Origin: an uncultured Anaerolineales bacterium | GTDB lineage: Bacteria > Chloroflexota > Anaerolineae > B4-G1 | Direction of reading: 5' to 3' | Length of the DNA: 64,000 bases | Assembly (NCBI GenBank): GCA_964450435.1 | Contig: CAYVCX010000008.1 | Location: 6,548-70,547, forward strand | Shown: positions 48,705-64,000 of the stretch, piece by piece | How the letters are laid out: each line of letters starts with the position of its first letter | Numbering within the stretch: the first letter of the stretch is position 1 | Notes under the pieces: generated by a model | What the model saw: the letters and a program-made list of their open reading frames with translations, nothing else | Databases searched by the model: none | What the model was told of the DNA's origin: nothing | Program-made: the position numbers and the translations under genes

Positions 48705-49724
48705 TCACGACCGTCCCGTGGTCGCGACGCCCCTCCCCGGGGACACAGCCAGGAACCGCTCCGCCTCCATCGCGGCGTTCGCCCCGTCTGCGGCTGCTGA
48801 CACCACCTGCCGGAAACGCCGGTTCTGAACGTCGCCTGCGGCGAAGACGCCCGGCACACTTGTCTGTTGTCGTTCGTCCGTCGCGACATAGCCCCGGTCG
48901 TCGAGGGCGACCTGATCGACGAATAGCTCCGTCTGCGGCACTGTACCCACATAGATGAACACACCGTCGGCCTCAATGACCTCCGTCTCATTATCCTTCC
49001 CGTTCAGCACCCGCACGCCGGTCACCCTCTTCTCCCCCAGGATCTCCTTCACCACGCTGTTCCACACAAACGCCATCTTCGGGTTGGCGAAGGCCCGATC
49101 CTGGTAGATCTTCGTCGCCCGCAGTTCGTCGCGCCGATGGACGACGACTACCTCGCGGGCGAATCTGGTCAGGAACAGCCCTTCGTCCAGAGCGCTGTCG
49201 CCACCGCCGACGACCACGACGCGCTTGTCCTGATAGAAGAATCCGTCGCAGGTGGCGCACGTGGAGACTCCCCGCCCGAAGAGCCGGGCCTCGCCGGGCA
49301 CGCCCAGCCGTCGCGGGACGGCGCCCGTAGCCACGATCACCGTACGACCCTGGTAAACCTGTCGTCCGGTCCGCACCGCCAGTCGCGAGTTGGAGAAGTT
49401 GACCTCTGTTGCGGCGTCGTGCACAATCTCTGCTCCGAACCGCTCCGCCTGGAGGCGAAACCGCTGAGCAAGCTCCGATCCCTCGATGCCCTCAGGAAAT
49501 CCCGGGAAGTTCTCGATACGGTTGGTACTCGACAGCTGACCACCCATCGCTGGGCCTGCCAGCACGACGGTCGCCAGGCTGGCGCGACCGGCGTAGATGG
49601 CGGCGGTAAGGCCTGCCGGCCCGGCTCCAAGGATGGTCAGGTCGTACCTGTGGACCTCGTCGGGCTTAGCCTCTCCTGATTCTCTAGCCTTCTGGTCAGG
49701 GGCTGTCAAGTTGAAATCGAGCAT
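48705..49724 (-). CDS. trxB: thioredoxin-disulfide reductase (NADPH-dependent, CATC active site)
   Basis: FAD site ILGAGPAGLTAAIYA. Redox-active CATCDGFFY. NADPH site VVGGGDSALDEG...HRRDELRA. Confidence 0.75.
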   Translation of the reverse strand: MLDFNLTAPDQKARESGEAKPDEVHRYDLTILGAGPAGLTAAIYAGRASLATVVLAGPAMGGQLSSTNRIENFPGFPEGIEGSELAQRFRLQAERFGAEIVHDAATEVNFSNSRLAVRTGRQVYQGRTVIVATGAVPRRLGVPGEARLFGRGVSTCATCDGFFYQDKRVVVVGGGDSALDEGLFLTRFAREVVVVHRRDELRATKIYQDRAFANPKMAFVWNSVVKEILGEKRVTGVRVLNGKDNETEVIEADGVFIYVGTVPQTELFVDQVALDDRGYVATDERQQTSVPGVFAAGDVQNRRFRQVVSAAADGANAAMEAERFLAVSPGRGVATTGRS

Positions 49725-49749
49725 GTTGTGTCTCCTTCCCTTACCGGAC

Positions 49750-50181
49750 TCACAGGAACAGCTCGTCCTGGATGGGACTAGGCCCCAAGTCGGTGATCTG
49801 TCTGTCGAATTCCCTCACCACCTGGGCAAACCGCGGAGCCTCAGAGGATGAGATCCAAGAAAGCCGCAAGCGATCCCCCATCTCCAGCTCCAAGGTATCG
49901 AAGATGGACTTGAGCAGCGTTGTTCGCCTTCGCGCCTGCAAGTTCCCCGTCTGGTAGTGACATTGGCCGGGCCAACACCCGCTGATCAGCACCCCGTCCG
50001 CTCCCAGGAGGAACGCAGTGAATACGAACAGTGGGTCGACTCGACCGGAGCACATCACGCGGACGACCATGACTGAAGGCGGCATCTTGAACCTGGACAC
50101 GCCGGCCGAATCGGCGGCGGCGTACGTGCACCAGTTGCACAGGAATCCTACAATCGTCGGTGTGAGTTTTCGCTCTTCCAT
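49750..50181 (-). CDS. mvhD: hydrogenase iron-sulfur subunit MvhD/FlpD-like
   Basis: IVGFLCNWCTYAAAD...VRVMCSGRV...GADGVLISGCWPGQCHYQTGN is the canonical MvhD motif set. Confidence 0.75.
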   Translation of the reverse strand: MEERKLTPTIVGFLCNWCTYAAADSAGVSRFKMPPSVMVVRVMCSGRVDPLFVFTAFLLGADGVLISGCWPGQCHYQTGNLQARRRTTLLKSIFDTLELEMGDRLRLSWISSSEAPRFAQVVREFDRQITDLGPSPIQDELFL

Positions 50182-50189
50182 ATCTCCCC

Positions 50190-51332
50190 CTATGTCGCCA
50201 CCTCAGTGAACTCTTCTTCTTCAAACGTCCTCAGCGGAATCTCCTCGCCCACGTCTCTCCCCGGCTGATAGTCGAAGACGGCCTGAGCGGCCGTTCCCAC
50301 TTTGGAGAACATCGTCGAGATCGGGATGTCCGCGGGACACACGTCCGTACACATACCGCATCCCACACACGAGATAGCCATATGGGCCATCCGCCCGAGG
50401 TGGAAATAGACGGTATCGGATGGCACCCGGAGCCCTCCTTTCCTGACCGCTTCTCCCTCGTAGAATGCCACTGGACGCTCGCAGTTCTGAGAATCGAAAT
50501 AGCACAGGCGGCAATAGCAGATTGGGCACACCGTCTTGCAGCCGTGGCAGCCGATGCAGCGCCCAAACGTGTGGATCAGCTGCTTCAGGCCGACTCCGAC
50601 TCGGGCGAAGAGTTCCTCTCGGAAGGCTTCGCGCTCATCGTGGGAGCGTTCGAGCGCCTCGCTGTCCAACTTTCCCGAGACGGACGTCCCCTCCATATCG
50701 CTTGCGAAAGCCGCTCCCTTCTCGGTGTTCAGGTGGAGCGTGCACTGCGCATGGAGATCTGCCCCCCCCAGCAGCGCCACCGTGATGTCGGCACCTTCGG
50801 GAACGAAATTCTCGCACGCACGACACGTTGGCCGCACATCGTCGTCCAGCTCACCCTGCTCCACCCCCTCCCAGTACCCGGGCAGCTTCCCCTCCAGACT
50901 GCCGTCGATGCCCATATCCAGCGGGTAGACGCCACCGCAGGTGGAACTGATCAGAAGGAAGTTGTCCTGGTTTCCCTGGTTGAGCTTCAGTAGTTCGATG
51001 AACGCCCGCAACTCGCAGGGTTTGACCACAGCCGCCACTGGCTCAGCGACCGGCCCCTTCAGCGTCAGCCGGGAGAGCAACCCTCCGGCGTTGGCGGGCA
51101 TGAACGGGAGCAGGGGAAGCGTGTCCCCATCCTCTCCGAACGCTTCCGGGTCTCTGAACAGGGAATATGCCACTCCTCCGCTGGGGCCCCCGGTCCTTCC
51201 CAGCGCCAGCACAGCGGTCACCTTGCTGCTTTCCAGGAGGGAGCGCAGCAACTCTCGCACCGTGTGCTCTGCTCCTTTGTTGATGTGTAGCCTTTGCGAT
51301 GCAAAGGCTGACTTGGTTGCTTCCTCAGGCAT
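50190..51332 (-). CDS. FrhB/FdhB family protein (coenzyme F420 hydrogenase/dehydrogenase beta-subunit-like) with C-terminal 2x[4Fe-4S] domain, paralogue 1
   Basis: FrhB-type C-x2-C-x-(D/N)-F...ADI..G motif CRACENFVPEGADITVALLGGADLH. C-terminal CIGCHGCKTVCP and CVGCGMCTDVCP. Strong AGGAGG RBS before the ATG at 51332. The track ORF starts earlier at 51401, but that would overlap the paralogue's 3' end. Confidence 0.6.
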   Translation of the reverse strand: MPEEATKSAFASQRLHINKGAEHTVRELLRSLLESSKVTAVLALGRTGGPSGGVAYSLFRDPEAFGEDGDTLPLLPFMPANAGGLLSRLTLKGPVAEPVAAVVKPCELRAFIELLKLNQGNQDNFLLISSTCGGVYPLDMGIDGSLEGKLPGYWEGVEQGELDDDVRPTCRACENFVPEGADITVALLGGADLHAQCTLHLNTEKGAAFASDMEGTSVSGKLDSEALERSHDEREAFREELFARVGVGLKQLIHTFGRCIGCHGCKTVCPICYCRLCYFDSQNCERPVAFYEGEAVRKGGLRVPSDTVYFHLGRMAHMAISCVGCGMCTDVCPADIPISTMFSKVGTAAQAVFDYQPGRDVGEEIPLRTFEEEEFTEVAT

Positions 51333-52515
51333 CCTGCACCTCCTGGTTTCGGTAGATCTCCACATAGGGCTGTTCCACTTCGTGGAGTTCATCCATCTCA
51401 TAGGACACTAACGGCAGCGGATCCCGAAGGCTCACTCCCGCCACGTATCCCAGTGCCTTCTGCGCTCGATCCCCCAGCAGGCTGAACACCTGGCCGACCG
51501 GGATGTCCATTGGGCAGGCATCCTCGCACGCGCCGCACGATACGCACGACAGGGCCATGTGCGATGCCCGTCCAATGTGAAACAGCAAGGTGTCCGGCGA
51601 GAACCTCAGTGCTCCTTTGCGCTCTGCTCGCGCCAAGTAGTTCTCCGGGGGGAGCTTCAGCGCTGCCGATTCGAAGTAGCATTGGCGACAGTAGCACACT
51701 GGACACACCCGCTGGCAGTTGTGGCAGTTTATGCAGCTGCTGAACACGCCCAACAGCTTCTCCGCCCCGGCAATTGCCTCCTGCAGGTCTGCCTGCGCCT
51801 GCCGACGTCGCTCCCTCTGTGCCTGTTCAACCTGCTCCACCCGCGCGCCCCAATCCGTCAGCGCCGTGTTCAGGGAGTTGGCCTGCTGGGCCTCGTCTGG
51901 GGCGGGCAGGTCCATCTGCTCCAGGATGCGCTCTCCCTTGGTGCTCCCTGCGACGATAACTGCCGTTCCTTCCGCGCATCCCAGCGTGCCCACGTGCAGG
52001 TCCGAGCCGGGTGCCTGTCGGATGCTGAAGTGATCGCAGATCTGGCACGTCGACCGCATCGGCGAGCGGTCCCATTGTGAAGAAGCCTCCGCAAAGTAGG
52101 CCGCGTTGGCGACAGGGTCCTCAAGATAGTCCCCCAGCGGCAGCACGCCGGGGCAGTCCACAGTCATCAAATATACGTTGTCCAGATGTGCTTGCTCAAG
52201 CTTGCTCAGCTCGATCGCGGCCCGTGCCTCGCAGGGCCGCACGACCGCCGCGATTCGCTTGTTCGGCTTCCCGCGCATCGTCAGGCGACCGATTGCCTTA
52301 CTGCCCTGGACGGGCATCACGGGCGGTAGAAGGGAGGCACTATCAAGGATAGCCGGGTCCTGCAGCAGTAGGTAAGCGAACGAGTCCCCGGCCGGCGTTC
52401 TCACAGGTATGAGAACTGCATCAAAGATTCTCTTGTTCAACGTCTCCTTCAACCAGCCGATGAACGCCGCCTCAACGCCGTCGTCTGCTGCCAACACAAT
52501 ACCGTTGTCACTCAT
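51325..52515 (-). CDS. FrhB/FdhB family protein with C-terminal 2x[4Fe-4S] domain, paralogue 2
   Basis: CQICDHFSIRQAPGSDLHVGTLG motif. CINCHNCQRVCP and CVSCGACEDACP. ATGA overlap with the upstream mvhD-like gene. Confidence 0.6.
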   Translation of the reverse strand: MSDNGIVLAADDGVEAAFIGWLKETLNKRIFDAVLIPVRTPAGDSFAYLLLQDPAILDSASLLPPVMPVQGSKAIGRLTMRGKPNKRIAAVVRPCEARAAIELSKLEQAHLDNVYLMTVDCPGVLPLGDYLEDPVANAAYFAEASSQWDRSPMRSTCQICDHFSIRQAPGSDLHVGTLGCAEGTAVIVAGSTKGERILEQMDLPAPDEAQQANSLNTALTDWGARVEQVEQAQRERRRQAQADLQEAIAGAEKLLGVFSSCINCHNCQRVCPVCYCRQCYFESAALKLPPENYLARAERKGALRFSPDTLLFHIGRASHMALSCVSCGACEDACPMDIPVGQVFSLLGDRAQKALGYVAGVSLRDPLPLVSYEMDELHEVEQPYVEIYRNQEVQDA

Positions 52516-52943
52516 GTGTCGCTCCTTGTCTTCAGCGGGTTAGGACCCAGGCTCGTGATGTGCCGGTTGAACTCAGCGGACGTGTCCACAAACCGCCGTC
52601 CTTCGCCGTGCGCCACGTAGCGGAACCACACGCGCTCCGGCTCGAGACCCAGCGTGTCCAGCAGGCTCTTGACCAGCGCGACACGCCTTCGCGCGCGGAA
52701 GTTGCCATCGTCGTAGTGGCAGTCACCTGGGTGGCATCCGCTGATGACCACGCCGTCTGCCCCTTCAATCAGCGGGCGGACGATGTGCACCGCCGGCAGG
52801 GCGCCAGTGCAGTTGACCCGCGACGGGATCACGTTCTCCGGATAGCGCAGGTGATGGGCGGCGGCGGTCTCCGCCCCGCCGGAGCCACACCAGCTGCACA
52901 TGAAGTAGATGATCTTAGGTACGAACTCGTGTTCCTCGCTCAC
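52512..52943 (-). CDS. MvhD-like hydrogenase iron-sulfur subunit, paralogue 2
   Basis: YFMCSWCGSGGAE...RVNCTG...GADGVVISGCHPGDCHYDDGN. Confidence 0.65.
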   Translation of the reverse strand: MSEEHEFVPKIIYFMCSWCGSGGAETAAAHHLRYPENVIPSRVNCTGALPAVHIVRPLIEGADGVVISGCHPGDCHYDDGNFRARRRVALVKSLLDTLGLEPERVWFRYVAHGEGRRFVDTSAEFNRHITSLGPNPLKTRSDT

Positions 52944-52951
52944 ATTTCACC

Positions 52952-55900
52952 TCACACCAGTAGAGCATCGAGCGCGGCTACGGACTGCTCACCTTTAAAG
53001 TCCTGCAGATAGGACGCGTTGTTGGGACACGTGGCCACGCACGAACCACACGAATCGCAGAGGAAGGGGCGGATCTTGACCACCCGCTCGATCTGGTCAA
53101 TGACTCGCGCGCCGTAGGGACACACGTCCACACACACGCCGCAGCCCATGCACAGGGATTCGTGTACAGCGGCGACAAACATCTTGTTGGGAGGAGGCAT
53201 CTGATCCTTACCGATGACCACCAGCGCGCGACCGACCGCGTCCTTTGCGGTCAAGATCGTCTCGTCGAATGATCGCGGCGAGTGCGCCAGTCCCACCGGG
53301 AAGATGCCGTTGCTCCCCAGCTCGAAGGGCTTGGTCAGCTTCTTGATCGCCTCTTCATACGGGTAATTGCTGATGTCGCTGGAGAAGAAACCCTCGTAGT
53401 CCAGCGGATAACCCAGCAGCTCAGAGAGAGCCTCGTTGTTCTCTGCGTCCGGCACAATCCCCGTGCTCAACACCACCCAGTCCGCAGGATGGGTTTCCCC
53501 TTTGGTGACGACCTCCAACCCGGCCTCGTTCCTCCGCACCTCGGGATATCCGGTCTCCACGTCGTCTCCCGGGAAACGGATGAACGAAACCCCTGCCTCT
53601 TTGGCCAGTCGGTAGTAGTCCGTCTTTCCATAGCTTGCGATGTCGCGGTAGAAGACTCTGACCTCGGCTCCTTGCTCCCGGAGCAAGATGGCGTGCTCCA
53701 ACGCCTGGTTGCAGCACAGGCGGGAGCAGTACGGTACCTCCGGGGTTCTCGATCCCACGCACTGGATCATCGCCACGTGCTTGGCGGTCTCTCCGCCCTT
53801 CATTCTTTCCGCCAGCTCCGCCTGCGTCATCACGGCCGGATCTTCCCCGTAGAGGAAACCCTGCGGCAGGGATTCTTGCGCCCCCGTCGCTACGAAGATC
53901 ACACCCGCTTCCGCCGAGACAGGGGTCGCGGGGGTGTTCACGACCACCTGGTAATTCCCTGCGTACCCATCCACCTGGCTCAGTTCTGCTTGCGTGTAAC
54001 AGGTGATATTGTCCGAGGCGGTCACGCTAGAGATAAGTCTTTTCACGTACTCCCGCTGTCCCTCATCCAGGTACTTCGTCTGACCGCCCAGCTCGCTCTC
54101 GCGCTCCACCAACACCACGGCGAACCCATTGGCCGCGATCTCGGTGGCCGCAGTCAGCCCGGCCAGCCCGCCGCCGACGACCAGTGCCTGTCCGTTGAAC
54201 GTGTCCACAGATGGACGGACGTGTCTCCCGCGCTTGACCTTCTCCACTGCGCCCCGGATCAGCGCCAGCGACTTCATCAACATCCTCTCCGGATCTGTGT
54301 GAACCTGAATCACGTCTTCCCTGAAGCGCAGGTACTCACATAGGAGAGGGCTGAGGCCAGCTGTCATGACGGCCTTGTTGTACTTCCCTTTCTTCTGCAG
54401 GGGAGTGCAGGTGGCCAGGACAACCCGGTTGACGCCTGATGCTTCGATGCACTCCGTTGTCGCCTTGATCGTTGGGCCGGTGCAGCACCCCTCGATGACC
54501 TCCGCGTGGCTGACGCCCGGCAGTGTCTGCACGCGTTCCACCAGTCCCGGCAGATCAATCCGTTCATCGAACTGGCCGAAGCAACTACAGATGAACACAC
54601 CGACGCGTGCGAGCTCACCCGCTACGTCGCGCAGCGGTGGGGCAGGGCCGGGTTTCACGTTTTTCTCTCCCAGGTATGATTGCATCTCCGTCAGCGCTGC
54701 GCAGCCGTCCCATACGGTCTCCGGATTCCCCTTGGGGCCCGTCAGTTCTCCAACGGCAAAGATCCCATCCACGTCGGTCTCGCAGCACGAAAAGGGTCGC
54801 CGGCGGCAGAACCCATTGTCGTCTGCCTGCACGCCGGTCAGCCGTGACAGCTCGTTCATCTGCGACGGCGGGCTCTGCCCGGTGACCAGGATGGCGAGCT
54901 CAACGGTCTGCGTGCACGATTCCCCGTCTACGGACGTGTAATGGATTGTCGCTTCCTCAACGGTATCGTCGGGAACGATGCTGAGCGTCTCCGCCCGCTC
55001 CACACGCACCCCGGCATCCAGCGCTTTCTCGTACCACTGATGGTGTCCCTTGCCTATCCCCCGGTAATCGTGCAGGAAGACGGTCACCTCGGCCTGCGGC
55101 AGGATCTCCCTGAGACGGACCGCCCGGTAGATGGCGCTCACGCTCAGGTTGTAGTTCTCGTACTCGACCCCCGGTCGGTTGAAGTGCGGCGTGACGATCA
55201 CGGCGAACGTCTGCGGCATCCTGCCAGACGGCAGGCACACCGAGTCACGTACAAAGTTCGTCAGCAGGGAGCGCCTGGCCACCTCGGAGTTGCGAATGAC
55301 GCTCGGGCCTTGCCCCAATCCAAAATCGCTCAGGTCCTCATCGCTCGGCTCCTCGAACGCATCGGCTAGGACGATCGCGCCCACGTCGGCCTCCATTGCT
55401 TCCTCGGGTCGCTCGACCTTGAGCGCGCCGGTGGGACACACCTCCTCGCATGCACCGCAGCGCGTGCAGTGCTCGAAGTCGATCAGGTAGCAATTCTCCC
55501 AGCCCGCCTCGGGGATCACGCGGATCGCCTTGCCGTCATCCACCTCGACGGGACAGACCTCGATGCACTGATCGCACTCCGTGCAGGCGAAGTTGTTGAC
55601 CGCCTTGTCTCTCTTCTTGAACTTGACGTGGAAATGCCCCGCCTCGCCGGAGACCGCCAGCAACTCCGCGTTGTAACAGTCCTGCATCGCGCCGCTGGCC
55701 TTGAATGCGCGCTGGGGCATATGCCCGCAGATCCAGCAGAAGTCGAGGGGCAACTGGGCCAGGGCCTGATACTTCTCCTCGTCCACGTACGAGCCACGGT
55801 TGAGCAGGATGAACTTATGCCCGCGCTTGCCAAGGGCGTACGCCGCTCGATAGCCGCCTAGATTGGTTCCATAGATCAACACCGTACTCTCATTTGGCAT
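52952..55900 (-). CDS. hdrA: HdrA-like FAD/iron-sulfur oxidoreductase, double-length (982 aa) with internal and C-terminal ferredoxin domains
   Basis: N-terminal HdrA-like region with inserted 2x[4Fe-4S] (CTECDQCIEVCP, CTRCGACEEVCP). Second Rossmann/FAD site ALVVGGGLAGLTAATEIA. Multiple Cys clusters. C-terminal CMGCGVCVDVCP and CDSCGSCVATCP. Confidence 0.7.
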   Translation of the reverse strand: MPNESTVLIYGTNLGGYRAAYALGKRGHKFILLNRGSYVDEEKYQALAQLPLDFCWICGHMPQRAFKASGAMQDCYNAELLAVSGEAGHFHVKFKKRDKAVNNFACTECDQCIEVCPVEVDDGKAIRVIPEAGWENCYLIDFEHCTRCGACEEVCPTGALKVERPEEAMEADVGAIVLADAFEEPSDEDLSDFGLGQGPSVIRNSEVARRSLLTNFVRDSVCLPSGRMPQTFAVIVTPHFNRPGVEYENYNLSVSAIYRAVRLREILPQAEVTVFLHDYRGIGKGHHQWYEKALDAGVRVERAETLSIVPDDTVEEATIHYTSVDGESCTQTVELAILVTGQSPPSQMNELSRLTGVQADDNGFCRRRPFSCCETDVDGIFAVGELTGPKGNPETVWDGCAALTEMQSYLGEKNVKPGPAPPLRDVAGELARVGVFICSCFGQFDERIDLPGLVERVQTLPGVSHAEVIEGCCTGPTIKATTECIEASGVNRVVLATCTPLQKKGKYNKAVMTAGLSPLLCEYLRFREDVIQVHTDPERMLMKSLALIRGAVEKVKRGRHVRPSVDTFNGQALVVGGGLAGLTAATEIAANGFAVVLVERESELGGQTKYLDEGQREYVKRLISSVTASDNITCYTQAELSQVDGYAGNYQVVVNTPATPVSAEAGVIFVATGAQESLPQGFLYGEDPAVMTQAELAERMKGGETAKHVAMIQCVGSRTPEVPYCSRLCCNQALEHAILLREQGAEVRVFYRDIASYGKTDYYRLAKEAGVSFIRFPGDDVETGYPEVRRNEAGLEVVTKGETHPADWVVLSTGIVPDAENNEALSELLGYPLDYEGFFSSDISNYPYEEAIKKLTKPFELGSNGIFPVGLAHSPRSFDETILTAKDAVGRALVVIGKDQMPPPNKMFVAAVHESLCMGCGVCVDVCPYGARVIDQIERVVKIRPFLCDSCGSCVATCPNNASYLQDFKGEQSVAALDALLV

Positions 55901-57490: not shown

Positions 57491-58483
57491 TCACCGGCAG
57501 ACCGTCGTTCTCCCATCGCTCGATCGCTCTGGCTCCCCACGGAGAGGCCTACGCGCACGATTCGGCATACCGGAGGCAGTCGCCAGTGTCGGCCTCAACT
57601 CGGGCGTAGGCTTCGTGCCACCCCCAGGGTACCGGCATCTCCTCATAGAGCGCCTCTCGGCGCGCCCCCAACAGGCACCGTGCCCCCCCATGAAATCGGC
57701 CGTGCACATCACCCGCTGCCCTGTTCTGGATGAGAGACAATCAAGCCACTCCAAGCCCTCCTCGCACCGGAGCAGGTGGTGGTCCAGGATCAGCGTATCG
57801 ACCTCCCGGGCCAGTCGTTCTGCGTTCTTCCAGGCACGCACGCGCCGCCTGCGGCCCACGAAGTGGCAGAGATAGAGGGCTGACCCGCCAACCAGGACGC
57901 TATCAGGCACCCAGTCTAGGATCAACGAGACGGCCTGGTGGTCGAGGAGTTGAATGTCGGAAGCGTGCACGAAGACGGTCCCGTCATCCTCGATGCGGGT
58001 CATCATCACCGTGCCGAGATGCGAATCTGGCTCTCCGTGCGCTACCGCCGGGGAGAAGGCGAGAGCTCCGGGGATCTGCCCGTCGGCGGCGTCCAGAGGC
58101 CTGTCCAGAATGTCGCTCAGGCCCTCGCGACGATCCTTCATGGTGGGGGAGAGACCTTCGTCTCCTTTCACCCACAACTGGGTCGTGTGACAGAGAGTCG
58201 CTGCCCGCAGTGCCTTCAGCTGGTAGGGATTCGCGTCCGGTAGAGGTGCGTGATCGCCGTGAAGGTGGCTGATCACCACGTCGCTCGCTGCCTCCAACCT
58301 TTTCCGGATCTTCGGACGCGCGCACTCGCCGACGGCCACCTGGGCCGGGTGCCGGAGCAGGCCGTGGCGCTCATAGCCTAGCGCCAGTCCAGGGTCAATG
58401 AGGAACCTGCGACCCGCGGCTTCCACGGCACAGCACAAGCCGCGCACGCCCAGCGACTCCGCACCGAGAATCTCAATCTGCAT
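57491..58483 (-). CDS. MBL-fold metallo-hydrolase
   Basis: HLHGDH zinc motif. The last ~60 aa are Arg-rich and look out of frame, so there may be a 3' frameshift. Confidence 0.55.
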   Translation of the reverse strand: MQIEILGAESLGVRGLCCAVEAAGRRFLIDPGLALGYERHGLLRHPAQVAVGECARPKIRKRLEAASDVVISHLHGDHAPLPDANPYQLKALRAATLCHTTQLWVKGDEGLSPTMKDRREGLSDILDRPLDAADGQIPGALAFSPAVAHGEPDSHLGTVMMTRIEDDGTVFVHASDIQLLDHQAVSLILDWVPDSVLVGGSALYLCHFVGRRRRVRAWKNAERLAREVDTLILDHHLLRCEEGLEWLDCLSSRTGQRVMCTADFMGGHGACWGRAERRSMRRCRYPGGGTKPTPELRPTLATASGMPNRARRPLRGEPERSSDGRTTVCR

Positions 58484-58548: not shown

Positions 58549-59889
58549 CTATTTCCGCATCTTCGCCAGGGCCATCTCGGCCGCGTTCACCACGTGGTAT
58601 GCGATAGGCGAGGCGGTTAGCGCCGGATGGGTCCCGATCTGGAACATCGCCATCTCCTCGGCCGTCATGCGGCTCTGCACACAGGCCGAGATCGCGTTGA
58701 TGATCTCGCCGGCGGTCGCATCGCCCATGACCTGGCCGCCCAGCGCCAGACCGGAGTTCCGCTCAAATACCATCTTCACCTTTGTCTGCGCCACGCCGGG
58801 CATGGAGCCAGGGTGGCGGTTCGGTCCTTCGATCGCCACGGAGACCACGTCGTAACCCAAGTCCTCGGCCATCGATTCCGTCAGCCCAGCGGTGGCCAGC
58901 GCATGATCGCCCACCGCCGTCGACCAGACGCCCACCGTGCCGACGTTCTCCCGCTTGATGGCAAACAGATTCGCGCCGGCGATGCGCGCCTCGGTCGAGG
59001 CAATGGAAGCTAACTTGAGGCCCGAGGGCTTCCCACCAAAGAAAGAGACCTTCTCCGCGCAGTCACCGCACGCATAGACGTCGTCGGACGATGTCTGCAT
59101 CGTCCGATCCACGCTGATCCCGCCCGTCGGCCCTGTCTCCAGGCCCGCGCGTTCCGCCAGGTCCACGCTCGCCACGGCGCCTACGCCCATAATCACCATG
59201 TCCGCGTCGATGACTGTACCGTCTGCCAGCTCCACGCGTTCCACGCATCCGTTGCCAGCGATGCGCTCCACCCGTGCTGGAGCGCTCACGGTGACGCCGC
59301 GGGATTCGAGTATCTCCTCCATGGTGACGCAGAACTCCTCATCGTATGCTAACATGAGGCAGTGCGGTAGCATCTCGACGATGGTGACGTTCTTGTCCCC
59401 CGTCTTGTTGATCTCATCCCCGAACTCAATCCCGATGAACCCGCCGCCGATGACCACCACATCCTCGACCGTTTCCAACTCCCTCTGCAGGTCACTCAGG
59501 TAGTCCACGTCTTTGAGAACGGTGTATACCCCGTCCAGATCGATCCCCGGTATGGGGGGCATGGCCGGCTTCGATCCGGTGGCCAGAATCAGCCGGTCGT
59601 AGCCGATTTGAGCTGACCCGGTATCTACTACCTTCTTCTCTGTATCCAGGGCCTCTACTTCCGTGACCAACAGCTCGATGTCGTTCTTCTCAAGCACCGC
59701 ATCCGATATCAAGTTTCTATCCGGTGATCCCACTGTGCCGAAGATGTACGGGATCCCGCACGGGATCAGAACCTGCTCTTCCTTCCGCACCATCAGGATC
59801 GATTTCTCTGGATAGTGGCGTCGTGCTGTGATGGCGGCGGTCAGGCCAGCGGCACTTCCCCCCACGATGACAACGTCAGCCCGTTTCAT
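58549..59889 (-). CDS. FAD-dependent pyridine nucleotide-disulfide oxidoreductase (CoA-disulfide reductase / NADH oxidase family)
   Basis: VVIVGGSAAGLTAA FAD site. Redox Cys in LIPCGIPY. Second Rossmann VVVIGGGFIGIEF. Confidence 0.7.
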   Translation of the reverse strand: MKRADVVIVGGSAAGLTAAITARRHYPEKSILMVRKEEQVLIPCGIPYIFGTVGSPDRNLISDAVLEKNDIELLVTEVEALDTEKKVVDTGSAQIGYDRLILATGSKPAMPPIPGIDLDGVYTVLKDVDYLSDLQRELETVEDVVVIGGGFIGIEFGDEINKTGDKNVTIVEMLPHCLMLAYDEEFCVTMEEILESRGVTVSAPARVERIAGNGCVERVELADGTVIDADMVIMGVGAVASVDLAERAGLETGPTGGISVDRTMQTSSDDVYACGDCAEKVSFFGGKPSGLKLASIASTEARIAGANLFAIKRENVGTVGVWSTAVGDHALATAGLTESMAEDLGYDVVSVAIEGPNRHPGSMPGVAQTKVKMVFERNSGLALGGQVMGDATAGEIINAISACVQSRMTAEEMAMFQIGTHPALTASPIAYHVVNAAEMALAKMRK

Positions 59890-60110: not shown

Positions 60111-60785
60111 TCACCCCTCTTCCTCAAGCTGCTCCAACCGATCCAACACCTGGCTCAGCTGATTCTGCAACTGCTTGGCTGTCTCCTTCAACGCAGCCAT
60201 CTCTTCCTTTGCCGTGGCTCCCGGCTGCCCAGCCGGCGGTACAGACCCCGACGCTGCCGGACCTGACGGTACTGCCGCTGACTGTGGCGGTGCGCTCGTG
60301 CCGTACCCTTGACCGACACGGCCCATGCCGCGGCCCATACCACGCCCTCTACCCATACCACGGCCCCTACCCATTCCTCGTCCCGTGCCCATCCCCGGCT
60401 GCACGCCGCTCCCGTGGGGCACGCCCATGCCCATACCGGCCTGCGCGCTGGCGTCGGCGATCGACTGCAGCTGGCCCGACTTGAAGGCTTCGACGGCCTC
60501 TCGCACGGTCCCTTCACCGAACAAGTAGATAGGAATCCCCGCCGCCTGGAACACGTTGTAGGCATTCGGTCCCACGTTGCCCGTCACCACCGCCTGTGCG
60601 CCCTGCGCGACGACGAACTGAGCGGCCTGAATGCCCGCCCCGCTGGCGGCGCCGATCACCTGATTCTCCGCGGCCTCGTGCGCCATGCTCTGCGTGTCCA
60701 CGAAGACGTAGGCGGGACAGCGACCGAAGACCGGGCTTGCCGCTGCGTCGAGATCGGCTCCGTTGCTTGTGACCGCAATTCTCAT
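60111..60785 (-). CDS. NifX/NifB-like dinitrogenase FeMo-cofactor-family domain protein with Gly/Arg-rich repeat (GMGRGRG)n and C-terminal coiled coil
   Basis: MRIAVTSNG..D..SPVFGRCPAYVFVD matches the Nitro_FeMo-Co fold. Internal M with AGGAGGAG RBS. The tail is DUF5320-like. Confidence 0.6.
   Translation of the reverse strand: MRIAVTSNGADLDAAASPVFGRCPAYVFVDTQSMAHEAAENQVIGAASGAGIQAAQFVVAQGAQAVVTGNVGPNAYNVFQAAGIPIYLFGEGTVREAVEAFKSGQLQSIADASAQAGMGMGVPHGSGVQPGMGTGRGMGRGRGMGRGRGMGRGMGRVGQGYGTSAPPQSAAVPSGPAASGSVPPAGQPGATAKEEMAALKETAKQLQNQLSQVLDRLEQLEEEG
60321..60400. repeat. imperfect 9-12-bp tandem repeats (CCCATACCACGG-like) encoding (GMGRGR)n in the NifX-like gene
   Basis: Seen directly, both as DNA periodicity and as the MGRGRGMGRGRGMGRGMGR peptide. 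Confidence 0.5.
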
Positions 60786-60929
60786 TTGCACTCCTCCTGA
60801 CGAGACGTACAGTTCTCCTACCTGCCGGACGAGAGGCATCCGCCCCTCGTCCGCTACGGCGCTCGAGACGGGTGAGGACGTAGACCACGGCAACACCCGC
60901 CCCGAAGATCTTCGTGGACCGCTTGCGCC

Positions 60930-61295
60930 TTATGCCTCTTCCTGTTCGAGCTCCTGGATGCGGCCGGTGATGGCGTCCAGCGACTCGCGCAGCCGCTCAG
61001 CGTGCGTCCGCAGGGTAGTGGCCTCCTGCTCCTTGGTCGGCGCAGGACCGTACGGCGGATATCCTGCTGGAGCTGCGTAGCCGGCTCCGTACCGTGCCCA
61101 GAAGGGCAGCCCAGTCGCGTAGTAGCCCCGTCGCCACCCGCGACCCCAACCGCCGCCCCAGCCACGGCCCCAGCCATTGCTCATGCGGGCCCCCGGGTTG
61201 GCGTAGCCCGGCATGCCGTACCCGGAGCAGTACCCGGCGGCTCGTCCTGTCATCGGTCCCATACCCATGGGCCCGGTTCCGTCTCCTGCTGGCAT
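60930..61295 (-). CDS. DUF5320-like small Gly-rich protein (MPxGDGTGPMG...GYC motif) with C-terminal coiled coil
   Basis: MPAGDGTGPMGMGPMTGRAAGYCSGYGMPGY, then WGRGWGGGWGRGW, then ...ERLRESLDAITGRIQELEQEEA. AAGGAGGT RBS. Confidence 0.55.
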   Translation of the reverse strand: MPAGDGTGPMGMGPMTGRAAGYCSGYGMPGYANPGARMSNGWGRGWGGGWGRGWRRGYYATGLPFWARYGAGYAAPAGYPPYGPAPTKEQEATTLRTHAERLRESLDAITGRIQELEQEEA

Positions 61296-61439
61296 GTCCT
61301 CATACCTCCTTGGCAACGTGCCTCACCCTAGGCTTCTCACTTCCTCGATTCTGCTGCTCCCAGCAGATGTCCGATCCGCCCGCAGTACGTGCTGTACATC
61401 CCCTTCATCATCGACTTTCGTCGTCCGTACTGTGTCTGG

Positions 61440-61685
61440 CTAGCACCCGACACGTCCTCGGCCTCGGCCCCAGCCACCGCGAAAGCCCCTGGCGAGGCCC
61501 CAGCGCGGCCGCCTACGGCCGTAGAGCGGTCGACGGACCTCGTACGCCGGCCGCAAGTGTGCCGCCAGCGGAGGCCGGTAGGTGCCGTATCCTCTCGACA
61601 CGGGGCTGACGGGATTGCACCATCCCCGTGCACCTCCGGTCATCGGTCCTCTGCCGCTTGGCCCAGTTCCATCGAACGCTGGCAT
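61440..61685 (-). CDS. DUF5320-like small protein paralogue (N-terminal motif conserved, C-terminus divergent/truncated)
   Basis: MPAFDGTGPSGRGPMTGGARGWC. GGAGGAGGTG RBS. Spacing of ~385 nt matches a tandem unit. Confidence 0.4.
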   Translation of the reverse strand: MPAFDGTGPSGRGPMTGGARGWCNPVSPVSRGYGTYRPPLAAHLRPAYEVRRPLYGRRRPRWGLARGFRGGWGRGRGRVGC

Positions 61686-62067
61686 AGTTCTCACCTCCTC
61701 CAGTCTCTTGGTTGGCACGCCGGCCCATCGGCCTGCCGGTTCCTGCTGCTACTTCCCAACGCCCGGGCGGAGCCATCGTCTGGGTGCGGTCAGCGTACCC
61801 CGGCGTCCTCGCCCCCCTGCCGCGCAGTCGCCCTCGCCAGAAGGTGGGAAATCGCCACACGGTACGTCGTGACCAGGAGGGTCGCGTCGGTAGTCGGCGC
61901 GCCGACCATCCCAGCGATGCCCTCACATGCACCGAGCGGCCCTGCTGGCCTGCGTAGCCGACAGTCGGTTCTCCTGGCGCGTCGGGCAGTTTCACGGCAC
62001 AGTATCCCTCTCCGCGCCCACTGAACGGACCTTCGCCCAGTGGCCCTGTTCCGTCAAACCTCGGCAT
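61513..62067 (-). CDS. DUF5320-like small protein paralogue, probably frameshifted (track ORF over-extends across the next gene's RBS)
   Basis: MPRFDGTGPLGEGPFSGRGEGYCAV with GGAAGGAGGTG RBS at 62067. The downstream ~100 aa are R/W-rich and overlap paralogue B, so the true 3' end is unclear. Confidence 0.3.
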   Translation of the reverse strand: MPRFDGTGPLGEGPFSGRGEGYCAVKLPDAPGEPTVGYAGQQGRSVHVRASLGWSARRLPTRPSWSRRTVWRFPTFWRGRLRGRGARTPGYADRTQTMAPPGRWEVAAGTGRPMGRRANQETGGGENYASVRWNWAKRQRTDDRRCTGMVQSRQPRVERIRHLPASAGGTLAAGVRGPSTALRP

Positions 62068-62124
62068 ATCTCTCACCTCCTTCCTCACCATACTCTATCA
62101 AGGCGCGCCCTTACCGTGCCTGGT

Positions 62125-62562
62125 TCAGTCATAGGCGAGTCGGATTTCCTCATCAGTCAGCACGTGCGCGATCCGCTTCTGCCAAGCCGGAGAGCGCCAC
62201 GTGCTCAGTGCCTGGTGCGTCACGTAGTAATTCTGGGGGATTGGATGCGTGCCGATTACCACCTCCAGACCGTATTTGGCCGGCATGAAATCACAGAATG
62301 CCTGCAGGCGCGGGCAGGGTGGGTAGCCTACCACCAACCCGGTGGCCAGGTGAATCACCTCCGCCCCGTTCTTCTTCATCTCCGCGGGGGCGTACTCTAC
62401 GTTGCCGCCGGGACACCCGCCGCACGTGGCGTAGCCGACCAGCTCAATCTCCTCGGCTTCGTATAGGGCGAACGCCCCTTCGCGACTTCTCAGTGAGCGC
62501 AGGCACTTCCCACCTGCACACGTGTGGTAGCGGTGACAGATGATAATCCCGATCCGTTTCAC
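62125..62562 (-). CDS. CGGC domain-containing protein
   Basis: Cys pattern including the eponymous YATCGGCPG motif. Confidence 0.6.
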   Translation of the reverse strand: MKRIGIIICHRYHTCAGGKCLRSLRSREGAFALYEAEEIELVGYATCGGCPGGNVEYAPAEMKKNGAEVIHLATGLVVGYPPCPRLQAFCDFMPAKYGLEVVIGTHPIPQNYYVTHQALSTWRSPAWQKRIAHVLTDEEIRLAYD

Positions 62563-63443
62563 AGCTGCTTCTCCTTATGGTATCCACGACTGTCCTTTTC
62601 GTCCCTCCCCTGGTGCAAAATCAGGCTTCTCACCCGCACGCCCAGATCCCTGGCGATGACCGGGCACTTCGTCTGGAGCAGGAAAAAAAGCTGCGATCCC
62701 TCCTCGCTCAGCGTCTCGTAGTTTGCCTGTCCCTTGGCGATGACCAGTTCGGACTCCTCATATAGGCCGCGGAAAGGCTCCGAACACGTTTCCAAGATTG
62801 TGCCTGGGGCGTCTGAGCCATTGCTCATCACCTCCGCTACCTGATCCACACCGGCGGCTTGTGCGTCCTCCATCGTGGCATCGTTAATGGTGGGATGCCC
62901 TTTGACGGCGTAGACGACTGGTGGGTCGATGGTCTCGATCAACAGCCGATCGAAGACTGTCTCCCCGGCGTTGTCAGCCAGGTAGAGCACCTCCTGAGCT
63001 TCGTCGAGGGCGGTGCGGAAAACTTCCCCATCGTCGATGCCGAACGGCTCCTCTAGCACGCGCTTGACCTCTTCCCGCAGATCATATTCTGCGTCTGCGG
63101 CCATATCGATGATGTTCCCCGCGATGCTGAGTCGCACCGCCGCCTCCAGCCAGTCTTCCGCGTCAGCCAGCAGCTGTTCCATCCACGGATAGAGCGCCAA
63201 CGCTTCCTCAGTGCTGCACGCTTTGGCAGCCCGGTATGGATCGTCGGCGCCGGTCTCCTGCCTGACGATGCGGTGAACCTGGTGGGTGATCTGTGGAGGC
63301 GTGATCAACAACGGGGAGTTCTTCAGCACGTCCAGCACTCGTCCGAGGATTGCTCTCAGTTCTCGGTCATCCGCCCCCGCCACTCGTGCGGCATCCAGAG
63401 CCTGGCGTAGGAAGCACGGATAGCAGTCGAGATAGGTTCTCAC
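62559..63443 (-). CDS. DUF89 / ARMT1-like damage-control phosphatase family protein
   Basis: N-terminus MRTYLDCYPCFLRQAL (C..C). Conserved D/N metal-binding region (YLADNAGE, GQANYE). Confidence 0.65.
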   Translation of the reverse strand: MRTYLDCYPCFLRQALDAARVAGADDRELRAILGRVLDVLKNSPLLITPPQITHQVHRIVRQETGADDPYRAAKACSTEEALALYPWMEQLLADAEDWLEAAVRLSIAGNIIDMAADAEYDLREEVKRVLEEPFGIDDGEVFRTALDEAQEVLYLADNAGETVFDRLLIETIDPPVVYAVKGHPTINDATMEDAQAAGVDQVAEVMSNGSDAPGTILETCSEPFRGLYEESELVIAKGQANYETLSEEGSQLFFLLQTKCPVIARDLGVRVRSLILHQGRDEKDSRGYHKEKQL

Positions 63444-64000
63444 TCGTCATTCTCCTCAGAGACACTCTTCCTCGCTGCCAGACGGTCCACCACCTGTTCT
63501 GCGATCGGCTCGAAGACCTCGATGGTGCATGTCTCGATCCTCCCGACGTCGCAGTGGTGAGAGATCTCTGGATCCAGCGGGATGCGCCCCAGGAGTGGCA
63601 CCCCCAGCTCCGATGCTGTGTAGGCGGCCTGGCTCGGTCCGAAGACCTCGATCCTTGCGCCGCAGTCGGGGCAGGTAGCATAGCTCATGTTCTCCACCAG
63701 GCCCAGGATGGGCGCCCCCATCTGCTTGGCCATACGCGCCGCCTTCCGCACCACCATTCCCGCCAGATCCTGTGGTGATGTTACCAGCACCACCCCTCCG
63801 AGCGGGATCGACTGCATCACCGTCAGCGAGGCATCCGACGTTCCAGGCGGGAGATCGACCACCAGATAATCGAGCTTCCCCCAGACCACCTCGTTCCAGA
63901 ACTGTTTGATGACACTGCTGATCAGCGGCCCTCGCCAGATGACGGCCTCATCCTCGCTCGGGAGCAGCAGGTTGATCGACATGACCTTGACGCCCTGCTC
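63440..64000 (-). CDS. Mrp/NBP35 family Fe-S cluster carrier ATPase (ApbC-like); N-terminal P-loop part lies beyond window end
   Basis: AVIWRGPL...LDYLVVDLPPGTSD...VLVTSPQDLA...VENMSYATCPDCG is canonical for Mrp. The ORF remains open to the window edge. Confidence 0.7.
   Translation of the reverse strand, partial: EQGVKVMSINLLLPSEDEAVIWRGPLISSVIKQFWNEVVWGKLDYLVVDLPPGTSDASLTVMQSIPLGGVVLVTSPQDLAGMVVRKAARMAKQMGAPILGLVENMSYATCPDCGARIEVFGPSQAAYTASELGVPLLGRIPLDPEISHHCDVGRIETCTIEVFEPIAEQVVDRLAARKSVSEENDE

Follow-up and report, generated by a model that had tools for sequence, protein, structure and literature searches.

A conserved DUF5320, NifX-like and Mrp gene cluster of an Anaerolineales bacterium, a candidate iron-sulfur storage or delivery module

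Gene content and operon layout

The stretch of DNA analysed here, hereafter the window, covers 64,000 nucleotides (nt) of a contig from an uncultured Anaerolineales bacterium (Chloroflexota). Its end (60111..64000) carries a cluster of genes coding for a NifX-like protein, three small DUF5320 proteins, a CGGC-domain protein, a DUF89 protein and an Mrp-type ATPase, whose possible common function is the subject of this study. The original prediction, made from the sequence without database searches, had named these families. A Pfam search confirmed all the assignments (DUF5320, CGGC, DUF89 and ParA/Mrp), with one of the DUF5320 proteins, type B, at 26.7 bits for a cut-off of 27.

Every gene of the cluster is carried by the minus strand and the order of transcription is Mrp, DUF89, CGGC, DUF5320 types A, B and C, and NifX-like. 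Two junctions are 4-nt overlaps, between the DUF89 start and the Mrp stop and between the CGGC start and the DUF89 stop. The Mrp gene is cut by the window end. The public contig L001 overlaps the window over 2084 nt with 0 mismatches and adds 2223 nt beyond this end; on it, a PadR-family gene is located 79 nt upstream of the complete Mrp gene. We read the region as the distal part of one operon comprising padR, the translationally coupled mrp-duf89-cggc genes, duf5320A, duf5320B, duf5320C and the gene of the tailed NifX-like protein (nifX::RG::helix). No Rfam family was matched between 57000 and 64000, and a promoter and terminator scan returned signals no better than chance level.

The three small DUF5320 genes

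The full-length form of the DUF5320 family (PF17253; Pfam gathering cut-off 27 bits) is represented in the window by type C (60930..61295, minus strand, 121 amino acids (aa)), which matches the full profile (8.7e-27, 94.6 bits). It is composed of an N-terminal module, a (GWGRG)n middle segment (isoelectric point (pI) 10.2, 5 Trp, 29% Gly), the motif YYATGLPxWARxGY, a Pro-rich linker and a C-terminal amphipathic helix. The AlphaFold2 (AF2) model, built on a 64-sequence alignment, gives residues 1-80 a predicted local distance difference test score (pLDDT) below 50 and places a long helix at residues 88-120 (pLDDT ~90). Type A (61513..62067, minus strand) matches the profile over residues 1-46 (1.2e-08, 36.4 bits). 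Type B (61440..61685, minus strand, 81 aa) matches profile positions 1-56 (1.3e-05, 26.7 bits) and thus falls just below the cut-off. The C-terminal helix, at profile positions ~70-99, is present in type C and in the tail of the NifX-like protein and is absent from A (1-46) and B (1-56).

The part common to the three proteins is a 23-residue N-module, MPxxDGTGPxGxGPxTG(R/G)xxG(Y/W)C, after which they diverge. Across 147 proteins, residues M1, P2, D5, T7, G8, P9, G11 and G13 show little or no variation, and the module holds one invariant Cys, present in A, B and C alike. Type A continues as GYCAVKLPD...GYAGQQGR followed by an Arg/Trp-rich end. In type B, GWCNP precedes a Pro/Tyr-rich stretch and a GRGRGR end, and the Arg/Gly/Trp-rich C-terminus is devoid of helix. 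Types A and B usually end in ...RW.

Three tandem units of ~385 nt, each preceded by a perfect GGAGGTG ribosome-binding site, had been described for these genes. The spacing is indeed 390 and 382 nt, but the units are not copies of one another: the repeat seen at the DNA level is 56 nt long, codes for the N-terminal motif only and is 61-73% identical. Likewise, two of the three ribosome-binding sites are perfect and the third is GGAGGTA. A recent tandem triplication was rejected, given that 56 nt per unit are similar, that TRF detected no ~385-nt period and that the types are separately conserved across loci. The A-B-C order recurs in six Anaerolineae loci, and A and B are recognisable in other phyla. 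Type B is a conserved ORF (open reading frame) of 80-87 aa in 10 loci, and the type A orthologues have 89-91 aa in the relatives L003 and L006. The ratios of nonsynonymous to synonymous substitution rates (dN/dS), calculated against two relatives, are 0.15-0.26 for A (first 80 codons), 0.15-0.49 for B and 0.11-0.28 for C, compared with 0.06-0.27 for the neighbour genes. All three are therefore maintained coding genes. Judging from these sequences, they are three anciently diverged paralog types in fixed order, under purifying selection.

It could be argued that A and B are decaying, functionless duplicates of type C, since both lack the C-terminal helix, B scores just under the Pfam cut-off, the 3' end of type A is shifted in the window and the spacer after B keeps a helix-like coding remnant. 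Their dN/dS values, similar to those of the neighbour genes, the conservation of ORF length and of A-B-C order in six loci and the recognition of both types across phyla make this hardly credible. Outright pseudogenes were rejected on the basis of dN/dS.

The type A gene of the window has an additional base near 61807-61821, within or beside a G-run, and the stop of its orthologues is missing. The family-typical stop would fall at 61749-61751; instead, the ORF extends 93 codons to 61513. The overlap of the type A ORF with the type B start results from this +1 shift and lost stop. A one-base deletion restores a 105-aa product with a family-like ...GRGRGRR... end. The shifted sequence is identical in the independent assembly L002, and the shift is therefore probably real and not an assembly error.

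The spacer between B and C (61320-61440 in the window, minus strand; 7860-7973 in L003) codes for a helix-like tail remnant, '...HVLRADRTSAGSSRIEEVRSLG'. In the window this remnant stands in frame directly after the type B TAG stop and resembles that of L003. The sequence suggests that type B may be the truncated descendant of a full-length ancestor. In several phyla, type A is fused in frame to the following C-like gene to give one protein with two N-modules (L018 4379-4861, L022 7223-7708, L049 7495-7962 and L057 7827-8399; proteins P0080 and P0084). A search with the type C profile retrieved 6463 clusters at 50% identity among 1.84 billion representatives.

The NifX-like protein and its modular tail

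The last gene of the operon (60111..60785, minus strand) encodes a 224-aa protein that associates a NifX-like domain (IPR003731), a (GMGRGR)n segment, a Pro/Ala-rich linker and a DUF5320-type C-terminal helix. Its start had been placed at a GTG at 60896; the likely start is the ATG at 60785, preceded by GGAGGAG. The predicted combination of a NifX-type domain, a (GMGRGR)n repeat and a helical tail was otherwise recovered in full. The domain matches Nitro_FeMo-Co (PF02579) at 7.9e-20 (71.4 bits). The GMGRGR units are coded by an 18-nt tandem repeat at 60334..60392 on the minus strand (TRF, period 18, 3.3 copies), and the Arg/Gly (RG) segment has a pI of 12.0 and 32% Gly. The tail passes the DUF5320 cut-off (5e-6, 28.0 bits) over profile positions 18-99, with the N-module absent. 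By this match, the tail appears to be a DUF5320 protein deprived of its N-module.

The same architecture, a NifX domain followed by (GMGRG)n, a linker and a DUF5320-type helix, was found in 17 loci from several phyla. A fourth N-module type, type E, is absent from the window and ends in a zinc-ribbon-like Cys4/His motif (CxCPxCG...H...PC...CPxCG). It occurs in 22/84 loci of the survey presented below (L017, L018, L022, L049 and others, e.g. L022 7740-7976). Its relatives number at least 3876, and some NifX domains carry a fused type E tail. Since tails are shared between NifX domains and N-modules, both act as alternative heads. Type E may correspond to the small [2Fe-2S] protein of the ORP operon (Dde_3197), which together with Orp7 (DVU2107) is a candidate carrier of an N-module in Desulfovibrio. 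Among the best 120 matches of a type E profile search there is no named Desulfovibrio protein.

In the Protein Data Bank (PDB), the NifX-like domain matches TM1816 (3e-19), the Desulfovibrio gigas ORP (2wfb, 2.3e-18, residues 2-109) and MTH1175 (4e-17); NafY was not matched in this search. The NifX, NafY and NifB C-terminal domains, carriers of nitrogenase cofactors, belong to the same PF02579 family and bind complex anionic Fe-S cofactors non-covalently, but the domain of the window is closer to ORP, MTH1175 and TM1816. No nif gene is present among the genes examined in the 48.7-64 kb part of the window.

The Mrp ATPase and the accessory proteins

The first gene of the cluster codes for an Mrp/NBP35-type Fe-S carrier ATPase (63440..64000, minus strand) that runs off the window end, with the C-terminal 180 aa inside (Pfam ParA/NUBPL, 6e-60). 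The full protein, read on L001, has 358 aa with an N-terminal FeS_assembly_P domain, a ParA domain, a Walker A motif of the deviant type (GKGGVGKS) and the cluster-bridging CxxC motif, as CPDC. With 203 bits for PF10609 (ParA/NUBPL), it has the features of Mrp/NBP35/ApbC carriers. The best NCBIfam model is MrpORP (NF041136), with 320 bits over model positions 2-246 only; for want of the fused NifX-like domain, the score stays under the cut-off of 450. The ApbC model gives 234 bits.

The next gene (62559..63443, minus strand) encodes a DUF89/ARMT1-like metal-dependent phosphatase of the archaeal subfamily I type (Pfam 1.2e-64, 218.9 bits). It reaches 177.6 bits with the NCBIfam damage-control phosphatase equivalog, for a cut-off of 440. 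The protein is therefore a DUF89 family member to which no substrate is assigned. Its best PDB matches are AF1104 (2ffj, 8e-39) and PH1575 (2g8l). Four Cys (C7, C10, C220 and C260) are conserved in at least 85% of 25 locus-linked DUF89 proteins, which hints at a possible extra metal or Fe-S site. AF1104 and PH1575 also have the N-terminal CxxC and the second-last Cys.

The CGGC-domain protein (62125..62562, minus strand, 145 aa) matches the full PF08821 profile (1.5e-27, 96.4 bits). Six Cys (C9, C15, C20, C47, C50 and C83) are invariant in 49 sequences. The protein is conserved to an unusual degree: identity between bacterial phyla is 77-90% and dN/dS is ~0.06. The AF2 model (pLDDT 85) has no significant fold match in the PDB, and a sequence search of the PDB gave no match either. 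Elsewhere, the CGGC gene is solitary in Marispirochaeta and stands beside MTHFR in Desulfobacula. A literature search on DUF89 or CGGC in the setting of the present cluster returned nothing.

A flavoprotein of the Nox/CoA-disulfide (persulfide) reductase family (58549..59889, minus strand; Pfam Pyr_redox_2, 1e-62) begins 221 nt downstream of the cluster. Its best PDB matches are NoxA-3, the Pyrococcus CoA-disulfide reductase (CoADR) and CoA-persulfide reductase. The family was found in 10/84 DUF5320 loci, including loci from Actinomycetota, Omnitrophota, Verrucomicrobiota and Pirellulales, and it is possibly an accessory of the module.

Conservation of the neighbourhood

A scan for the N-module, with one genome per species, identified at least 383 confirmed loci. 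The best 80 were kept and, together with the window and the loci L003, L006 and L009, form the 84 loci counted here with iterated hidden Markov models run on all ORFs. The counts are lower bounds because many contigs are short. The kept loci belong to Anaerolineae, Planctomycetota, Bacillota, Actinomycetota, several former Deltaproteobacteria, Omnitrophota, Verrucomicrobiota, NC10, Zixibacteria, Leptospirales, Lentisphaerota, Atribacterota and others, and DUF5320 loci span more than 15 phyla of anaerobes.

NifX-like genes are present in 76/84 loci (155 ORFs, 146 of them on the same strand) and P-loop ATPases of the Mrp/MinD kind in 75/84 (168/172 on the same strand). The core therefore consists of DUF5320, a NifX-like protein and an Fe-S ATPase. 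MinD proteins with ferredoxin inserts (Orp3/Orp4 type) occur in 46/84 loci and P-loop/NifX fusions (MrpORP type) in 8/84. The other recurring neighbours are DUF89 (25/84), sigma-54 activators (21/84), radical SAM proteins (17/84), NifU_N (13/84), PadR (12/84), TrmO_N-like proteins (10/84), Fur (9/84, named from sequence and not profiled), CGGC (7/84) and DUF364/DUF4213 (7/84). DUF89 thus often accompanies the core as an accessory; the presence of CGGC and PadR here is mostly specific to the lineage. The Anaerolineae relatives L003 and L006, where type C is 79% and 71% identical, keep the whole arrangement, in the order PadR, Mrp, DUF89, CGGC, A, B, C, tailed NifX-like, CoADR-like flavoprotein, MFS (major facilitator superfamily) transporter and HdrA-like. 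The neighbourhood had been expected to be conserved, and it is: in full in these relatives and as a core across the phyla surveyed. As regards the set itself, the expectation holds for the core, while CGGC and DUF89 turn out to be accessories. The idea of a metallocluster assembly or delivery system also agrees with the recurrence of NifU_N, Fur, DUF364 and MinD with ferredoxin inserts.

Two alternative roles of the small proteins can be confronted with these neighbours. In the first, DUF5320 proteins are adaptors or activators of ParA/MinD/Mrp-type ATPases, comparable to McdB, MinE or the N-terminal peptide of ParB, which position or regulate a cargo and do not bind mineral themselves. McdB-type partners of ParA/MinD ATPases are small, largely disordered proteins with a coiled coil, a biased composition and often a C-terminal Trp, and their genes neighbour that of a ParA/MinD-family ATPase. 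The constancy of the P-loop ATPases, the neighbours most regularly found and nearly always on the same strand, speaks for such a role, as do the disorder and single helix of type C and the ...RW ends of A and B. The polar localisation of MrpORP in the cell points in the same direction (PMC6345978). The likeness to McdB is nevertheless one of analogy, no sequence relationship being claimed, and cargo and ATPase subfamily differ. No sequence similarity to a known ATPase partner was seen, in analyses that included no test aimed at such similarity. Moreover, typical activator peptides are basic, whereas the N-module has a single Arg and is rich in Gly and Pro, and the same tails occur fused directly to NifX domains. 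A role of this kind, partly compatible with the storage or delivery function favoured below, seems unlikely.

In the second, the small genes have nothing to do with metals and code for RGG-type nucleic-acid-binding or condensate proteins, or for precursors of ribosomally made peptides in which the leader is conserved and the cores vary. RNA binding is common among RG/RGG repeats; the genes are tandem paralogs that share their N-terminus and vary in the remainder, and 17 loci contain radical SAM genes. On the other hand, the supposed cores are conserved across phyla and occur in fusions with NifX domains or a Cys4 zinc ribbon, proteases, transporters and cyclases do not recur among the neighbours, and these neighbours are overwhelmingly Fe-S or metal proteins. 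We regard this explanation as very improbable.

Relation to the ORP complex

The neighbourhood had been called functionally unexplained, which is too strong, as two studied systems are related to it: the ORP complex with its carrier MrpORP (PMC6345978) and IssA (PMC5524996). The ORP complex of Desulfovibrio vulgaris likewise combines, in an anaerobe-specific cluster, NifX-like proteins of the ORP/MTH1175 type and an Mrp/NBP35 carrier (PMC6345978; PMC8359166). MrpORP carries Fe-S clusters and transfers them to ORP proteins; it is polar in the cell (PMC6345978). Mutants of ORP show morphological defects (PMC8359166). The Mrp protein of the window scores best on the MrpORP model, and many DUF5320 loci contain Orp3/4-like ATPases (MinD with ferredoxin), MrpORP-like fusions and sigma-54 activators. 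The two systems differ in several respects. The P-loop and NifX parts are fused in MrpORP and are separate genes in the window. The ORP complex is associated with sigma-54 and OrpR, whereas the window operon has PadR upstream and no enhancer-binding protein was seen in the syntenic L003 and L006. Finally, neither RG tails nor DUF5320 proteins are described for the ORP complex.

The operon could therefore be envisaged as an ORP-type complex proper, holding a heterometallic (Mo/W-Cu) sulfide cluster and acting in cell division or morphology instead of Fe-S storage. The match of the NifX domain to the D. gigas ORP (2wfb, 2e-18), the proximity of Mrp to the MrpORP model, the ORP-type genes of many DUF5320 loci and the morphology of ORP mutants (PMC8359166) are in line with this possibility. 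It is made doubtful by the operon itself, which has no Orp3/4-type ATPase, no P-loop/NifX fusion and PadR in place of a sigma-54 regulator. Furthermore, Mo or Cu genes do not lie nearby and RG tails are a feature of IssA, reportedly absent from Orp9 (PMC6345978). An ORP complex in the strict sense has, in our view, a small chance of being correct.

Relation to IssA

IssA (PF2025/SipA) of Pyrococcus furiosus is composed of a NifX-like domain with a cationic, disordered tail behind it in which Gly, Arg and aromatic residues abound; it stores Fe and S in the form of thioferrate and can rebuild a ferredoxin cluster (PMC5524996). The IPR003731 domain and a disordered cationic Gly/Arg segment are thus shared with the NifX-like protein of the window. 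According to published criteria, IssA and IssX proteins possess an IPR003731 domain, a whole-protein pI of at least 9 (IssA) or 8 (IssX), few Cys and, within the last 40 residues, a Gly content of at least 20% (IssA) or 10% (IssX) (Vaccaro et al. supplement); the binding of iron and sulfur as thioferrate and the formation of nanoparticles are further traits of the clade. The NifX-like protein has the domain and 1 Cys.

The N-terminal peptide of the published issA primer was back-translated and metagenome contigs were scanned with it, which gave nine IssA-like genes of 161-210 aa, the shortest being cut by a contig end. Their domains are 37-38% identical to that of the window (hhalign probability 99.3%). 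Their tails are Pro-rich with (GWGRG)n, 'LGYCPWTG' and '...FGWW'. The (GWGRG)n repeats and the single Cys in a GYC motif are as in DUF5320 proteins, and hhalign aligns an IssA-like tail with type C at a probability of 96% (E 2e-9) over 45 columns of GWGRG repeats. IssA keeps the aromatic Trp/Gly/Arg segment in cis, whereas the window has it on separate small proteins; the tail of the window NifX-like protein, unlike that of IssA, is without Trp and ends in an acidic helix.

The gene context is the stronger connection. In 3/5 contigs examined (L097, L100 and L104), the IssA-like gene has a CGGC gene a short way upstream, and the archaeal CGGC protein of L100 (528-977) is 68% identical to that of the window, a conservation between domains of life comparable to the 77-90% between bacterial phyla. 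The gene order on L100, the best resolved of these contigs, is TrmO_N-like, CGGC, DUF364/DUF4213, IssA-like, a 75-aa membrane protein and another NifX-like protein, whose (GMGRG)n tail ends in GRGRGGW. TrmO_N-like and DUF364 genes recur in bacterial DUF5320 loci as well. Owing to this shared context, the window operon and the archaeal issA neighbourhood have four component kinds in common. The 75-aa ORF of L100 (2513-2740) starts with 'MPRGMGRGYGRR', continues with a hydrophobic, probably membrane-spanning stretch and has no Pfam match. The arrangement of the archaeal genes differs from that of the window, which adds the N-module proteins and the predicted coiled coil, as well as Mrp, DUF89 and PadR. 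The N-module was not found in the five archaeal IssA-like loci examined.

Proposed function and mechanism

We consider it somewhat probable that the operon is a bacterial version of an IssA/ORP-type iron-sulfur (metal-sulfide) storage or delivery module, and the rival explanations account less well for the conserved context. What has been demonstrated is which genes are present, how their domains are related, that the small genes are under selection and that the neighbourhood is conserved; all the steps of the mechanism itself are inferred. An Mrp/NBP35 dimer would build or carry a [4Fe-4S] cluster on its CxxC motif and hand it on, as shown for MrpORP. The NifX-like domain would hold an anionic iron-sulfide species non-covalently, comparable to the Mo-Cu sulfide cluster of ORP or the thioferrate of IssA. 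The cationic disordered Arg/Gly segments, on the NifX tail and, with Trp, on the DUF5320 proteins, would give the counter-charge and wrap the inorganic anion, as has been proposed for the tail of IssA. A coiled coil may form between the C-terminal helices of the NifX-like protein and of DUF5320 type C, which are homologous, and the aromatic (GWGRG)n segment, in cis in IssA, would thereby be recruited in trans. The N-module with its single invariant Cys may act as a peptide that docks on, or provides a ligand to, the ATPase or the NifX-like domain. The CGGC protein, with six invariant Cys, would take part by binding metal or Fe-S clusters. An accessory place would fall to DUF89 and to the CoADR-like flavoprotein downstream, and the flavoprotein may supply sulfide. 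In P. furiosus, NSR, which is related to this flavoprotein, and IssA are both induced by elemental sulfur.

A bolder version of this model, which we put forward tentatively and with a low expectation, makes the DUF5320 proteins free-standing equivalents of the IssA tail. With the tailed NifX-like proteins they would build a multivalent protein/iron-sulfide condensate or nanoparticle, that is a thioferrate-type store, which the Mrp/MinD-type ATPases would load, unload or position via the N-module.

Several points weigh against the storage or delivery model. The NifX-like protein has a pI of 5.71 and 8% Gly in its last 40 residues, values outside the published IssA/IssX ranges because its C-terminal helix is acidic. 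The Pfam DUF5320 profile is not significant on IssA-like tails (E 2-5), and the hhalign match between these tails and type C sits in low-complexity sequence and may be compositional. For these two reasons homology of the tails is not claimed: they share a chemistry, and homology is possible but unproven. The Orp3/4-type ATPase pair was not seen in the operon, whether in the window, on contig L001 or in the two syntenic loci L003 and L006, and the model offers no evident role for the DUF89 phosphatase. The role of IssA is itself debated between storage and detoxification, and the protein may chiefly tame insoluble iron sulfide (PMC8219758). Lastly, the searched literature has only two mentions of DUF5320, both incidental, the family being uncharacterised there, and no biochemistry on any of its proteins.

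Neighbouring genes

Between the flavoprotein and the MFS transporter, a metallo-beta-lactamase (MBL)-fold protein of the PRK04286 'hypothetical protein' family is encoded at 57491-58483 on the minus strand (NCBIfam 2e-89). This type is common to only two related loci; a different MBL family occurs in 27/84 DUF5320 loci. Further downstream, an operon at 48705-55900 (minus strand) codes for a 982-aa HdrA-like protein, two MvhD/VhuD-like proteins (52512-52943 and 49750-50181) and a thioredoxin reductase (48705-49724; TIGR01292, 391 bits, above cut-off). It also contains two ORFs of ~400 aa, one of which (51325-52515) is ferredoxin/FrhB-like judging by its L003 orthologue and the other (50190-51401) has a weak ferredoxin match only. 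The proximity of this Hdr-like operon had been thought suggestive. It carries no weight: HdrA-like genes are found in 4/84 loci, their proximity is lineage-specific and a link between the two operons is not supported.

Implications for iron-sulfur metabolism in anaerobes

The domain families and the ORP and IssA precedents were known already. The modular relation of DUF5320 to tailed NifX-like proteins, the fixed A-B-C set and the link between CGGC and IssA appear to be new observations. The storage and traffic of iron and sulfide in strict anaerobes are poorly understood. To our knowledge, no studied examples based on a NifX-like domain exist besides IssA and the ORP complex, and these two have been treated separately until now. 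The locus and its relatives tie them together through the RG-tailed NifX-like domain, the CGGC protein and the Mrp/MinD ATPases, and point to a disordered, uncharacterised family as a missing component. Thioferrate-type Fe-S storage is so far known to us from one hyperthermophilic archaeon; if the bolder version of the model is true, it would be widespread in anaerobic bacteria. Should DUF5320 prove to be a component of such a system, its members would be concrete candidates, open to testing, for a part in the storage or detoxification of Fe-S in anaerobes that abound in the environment.

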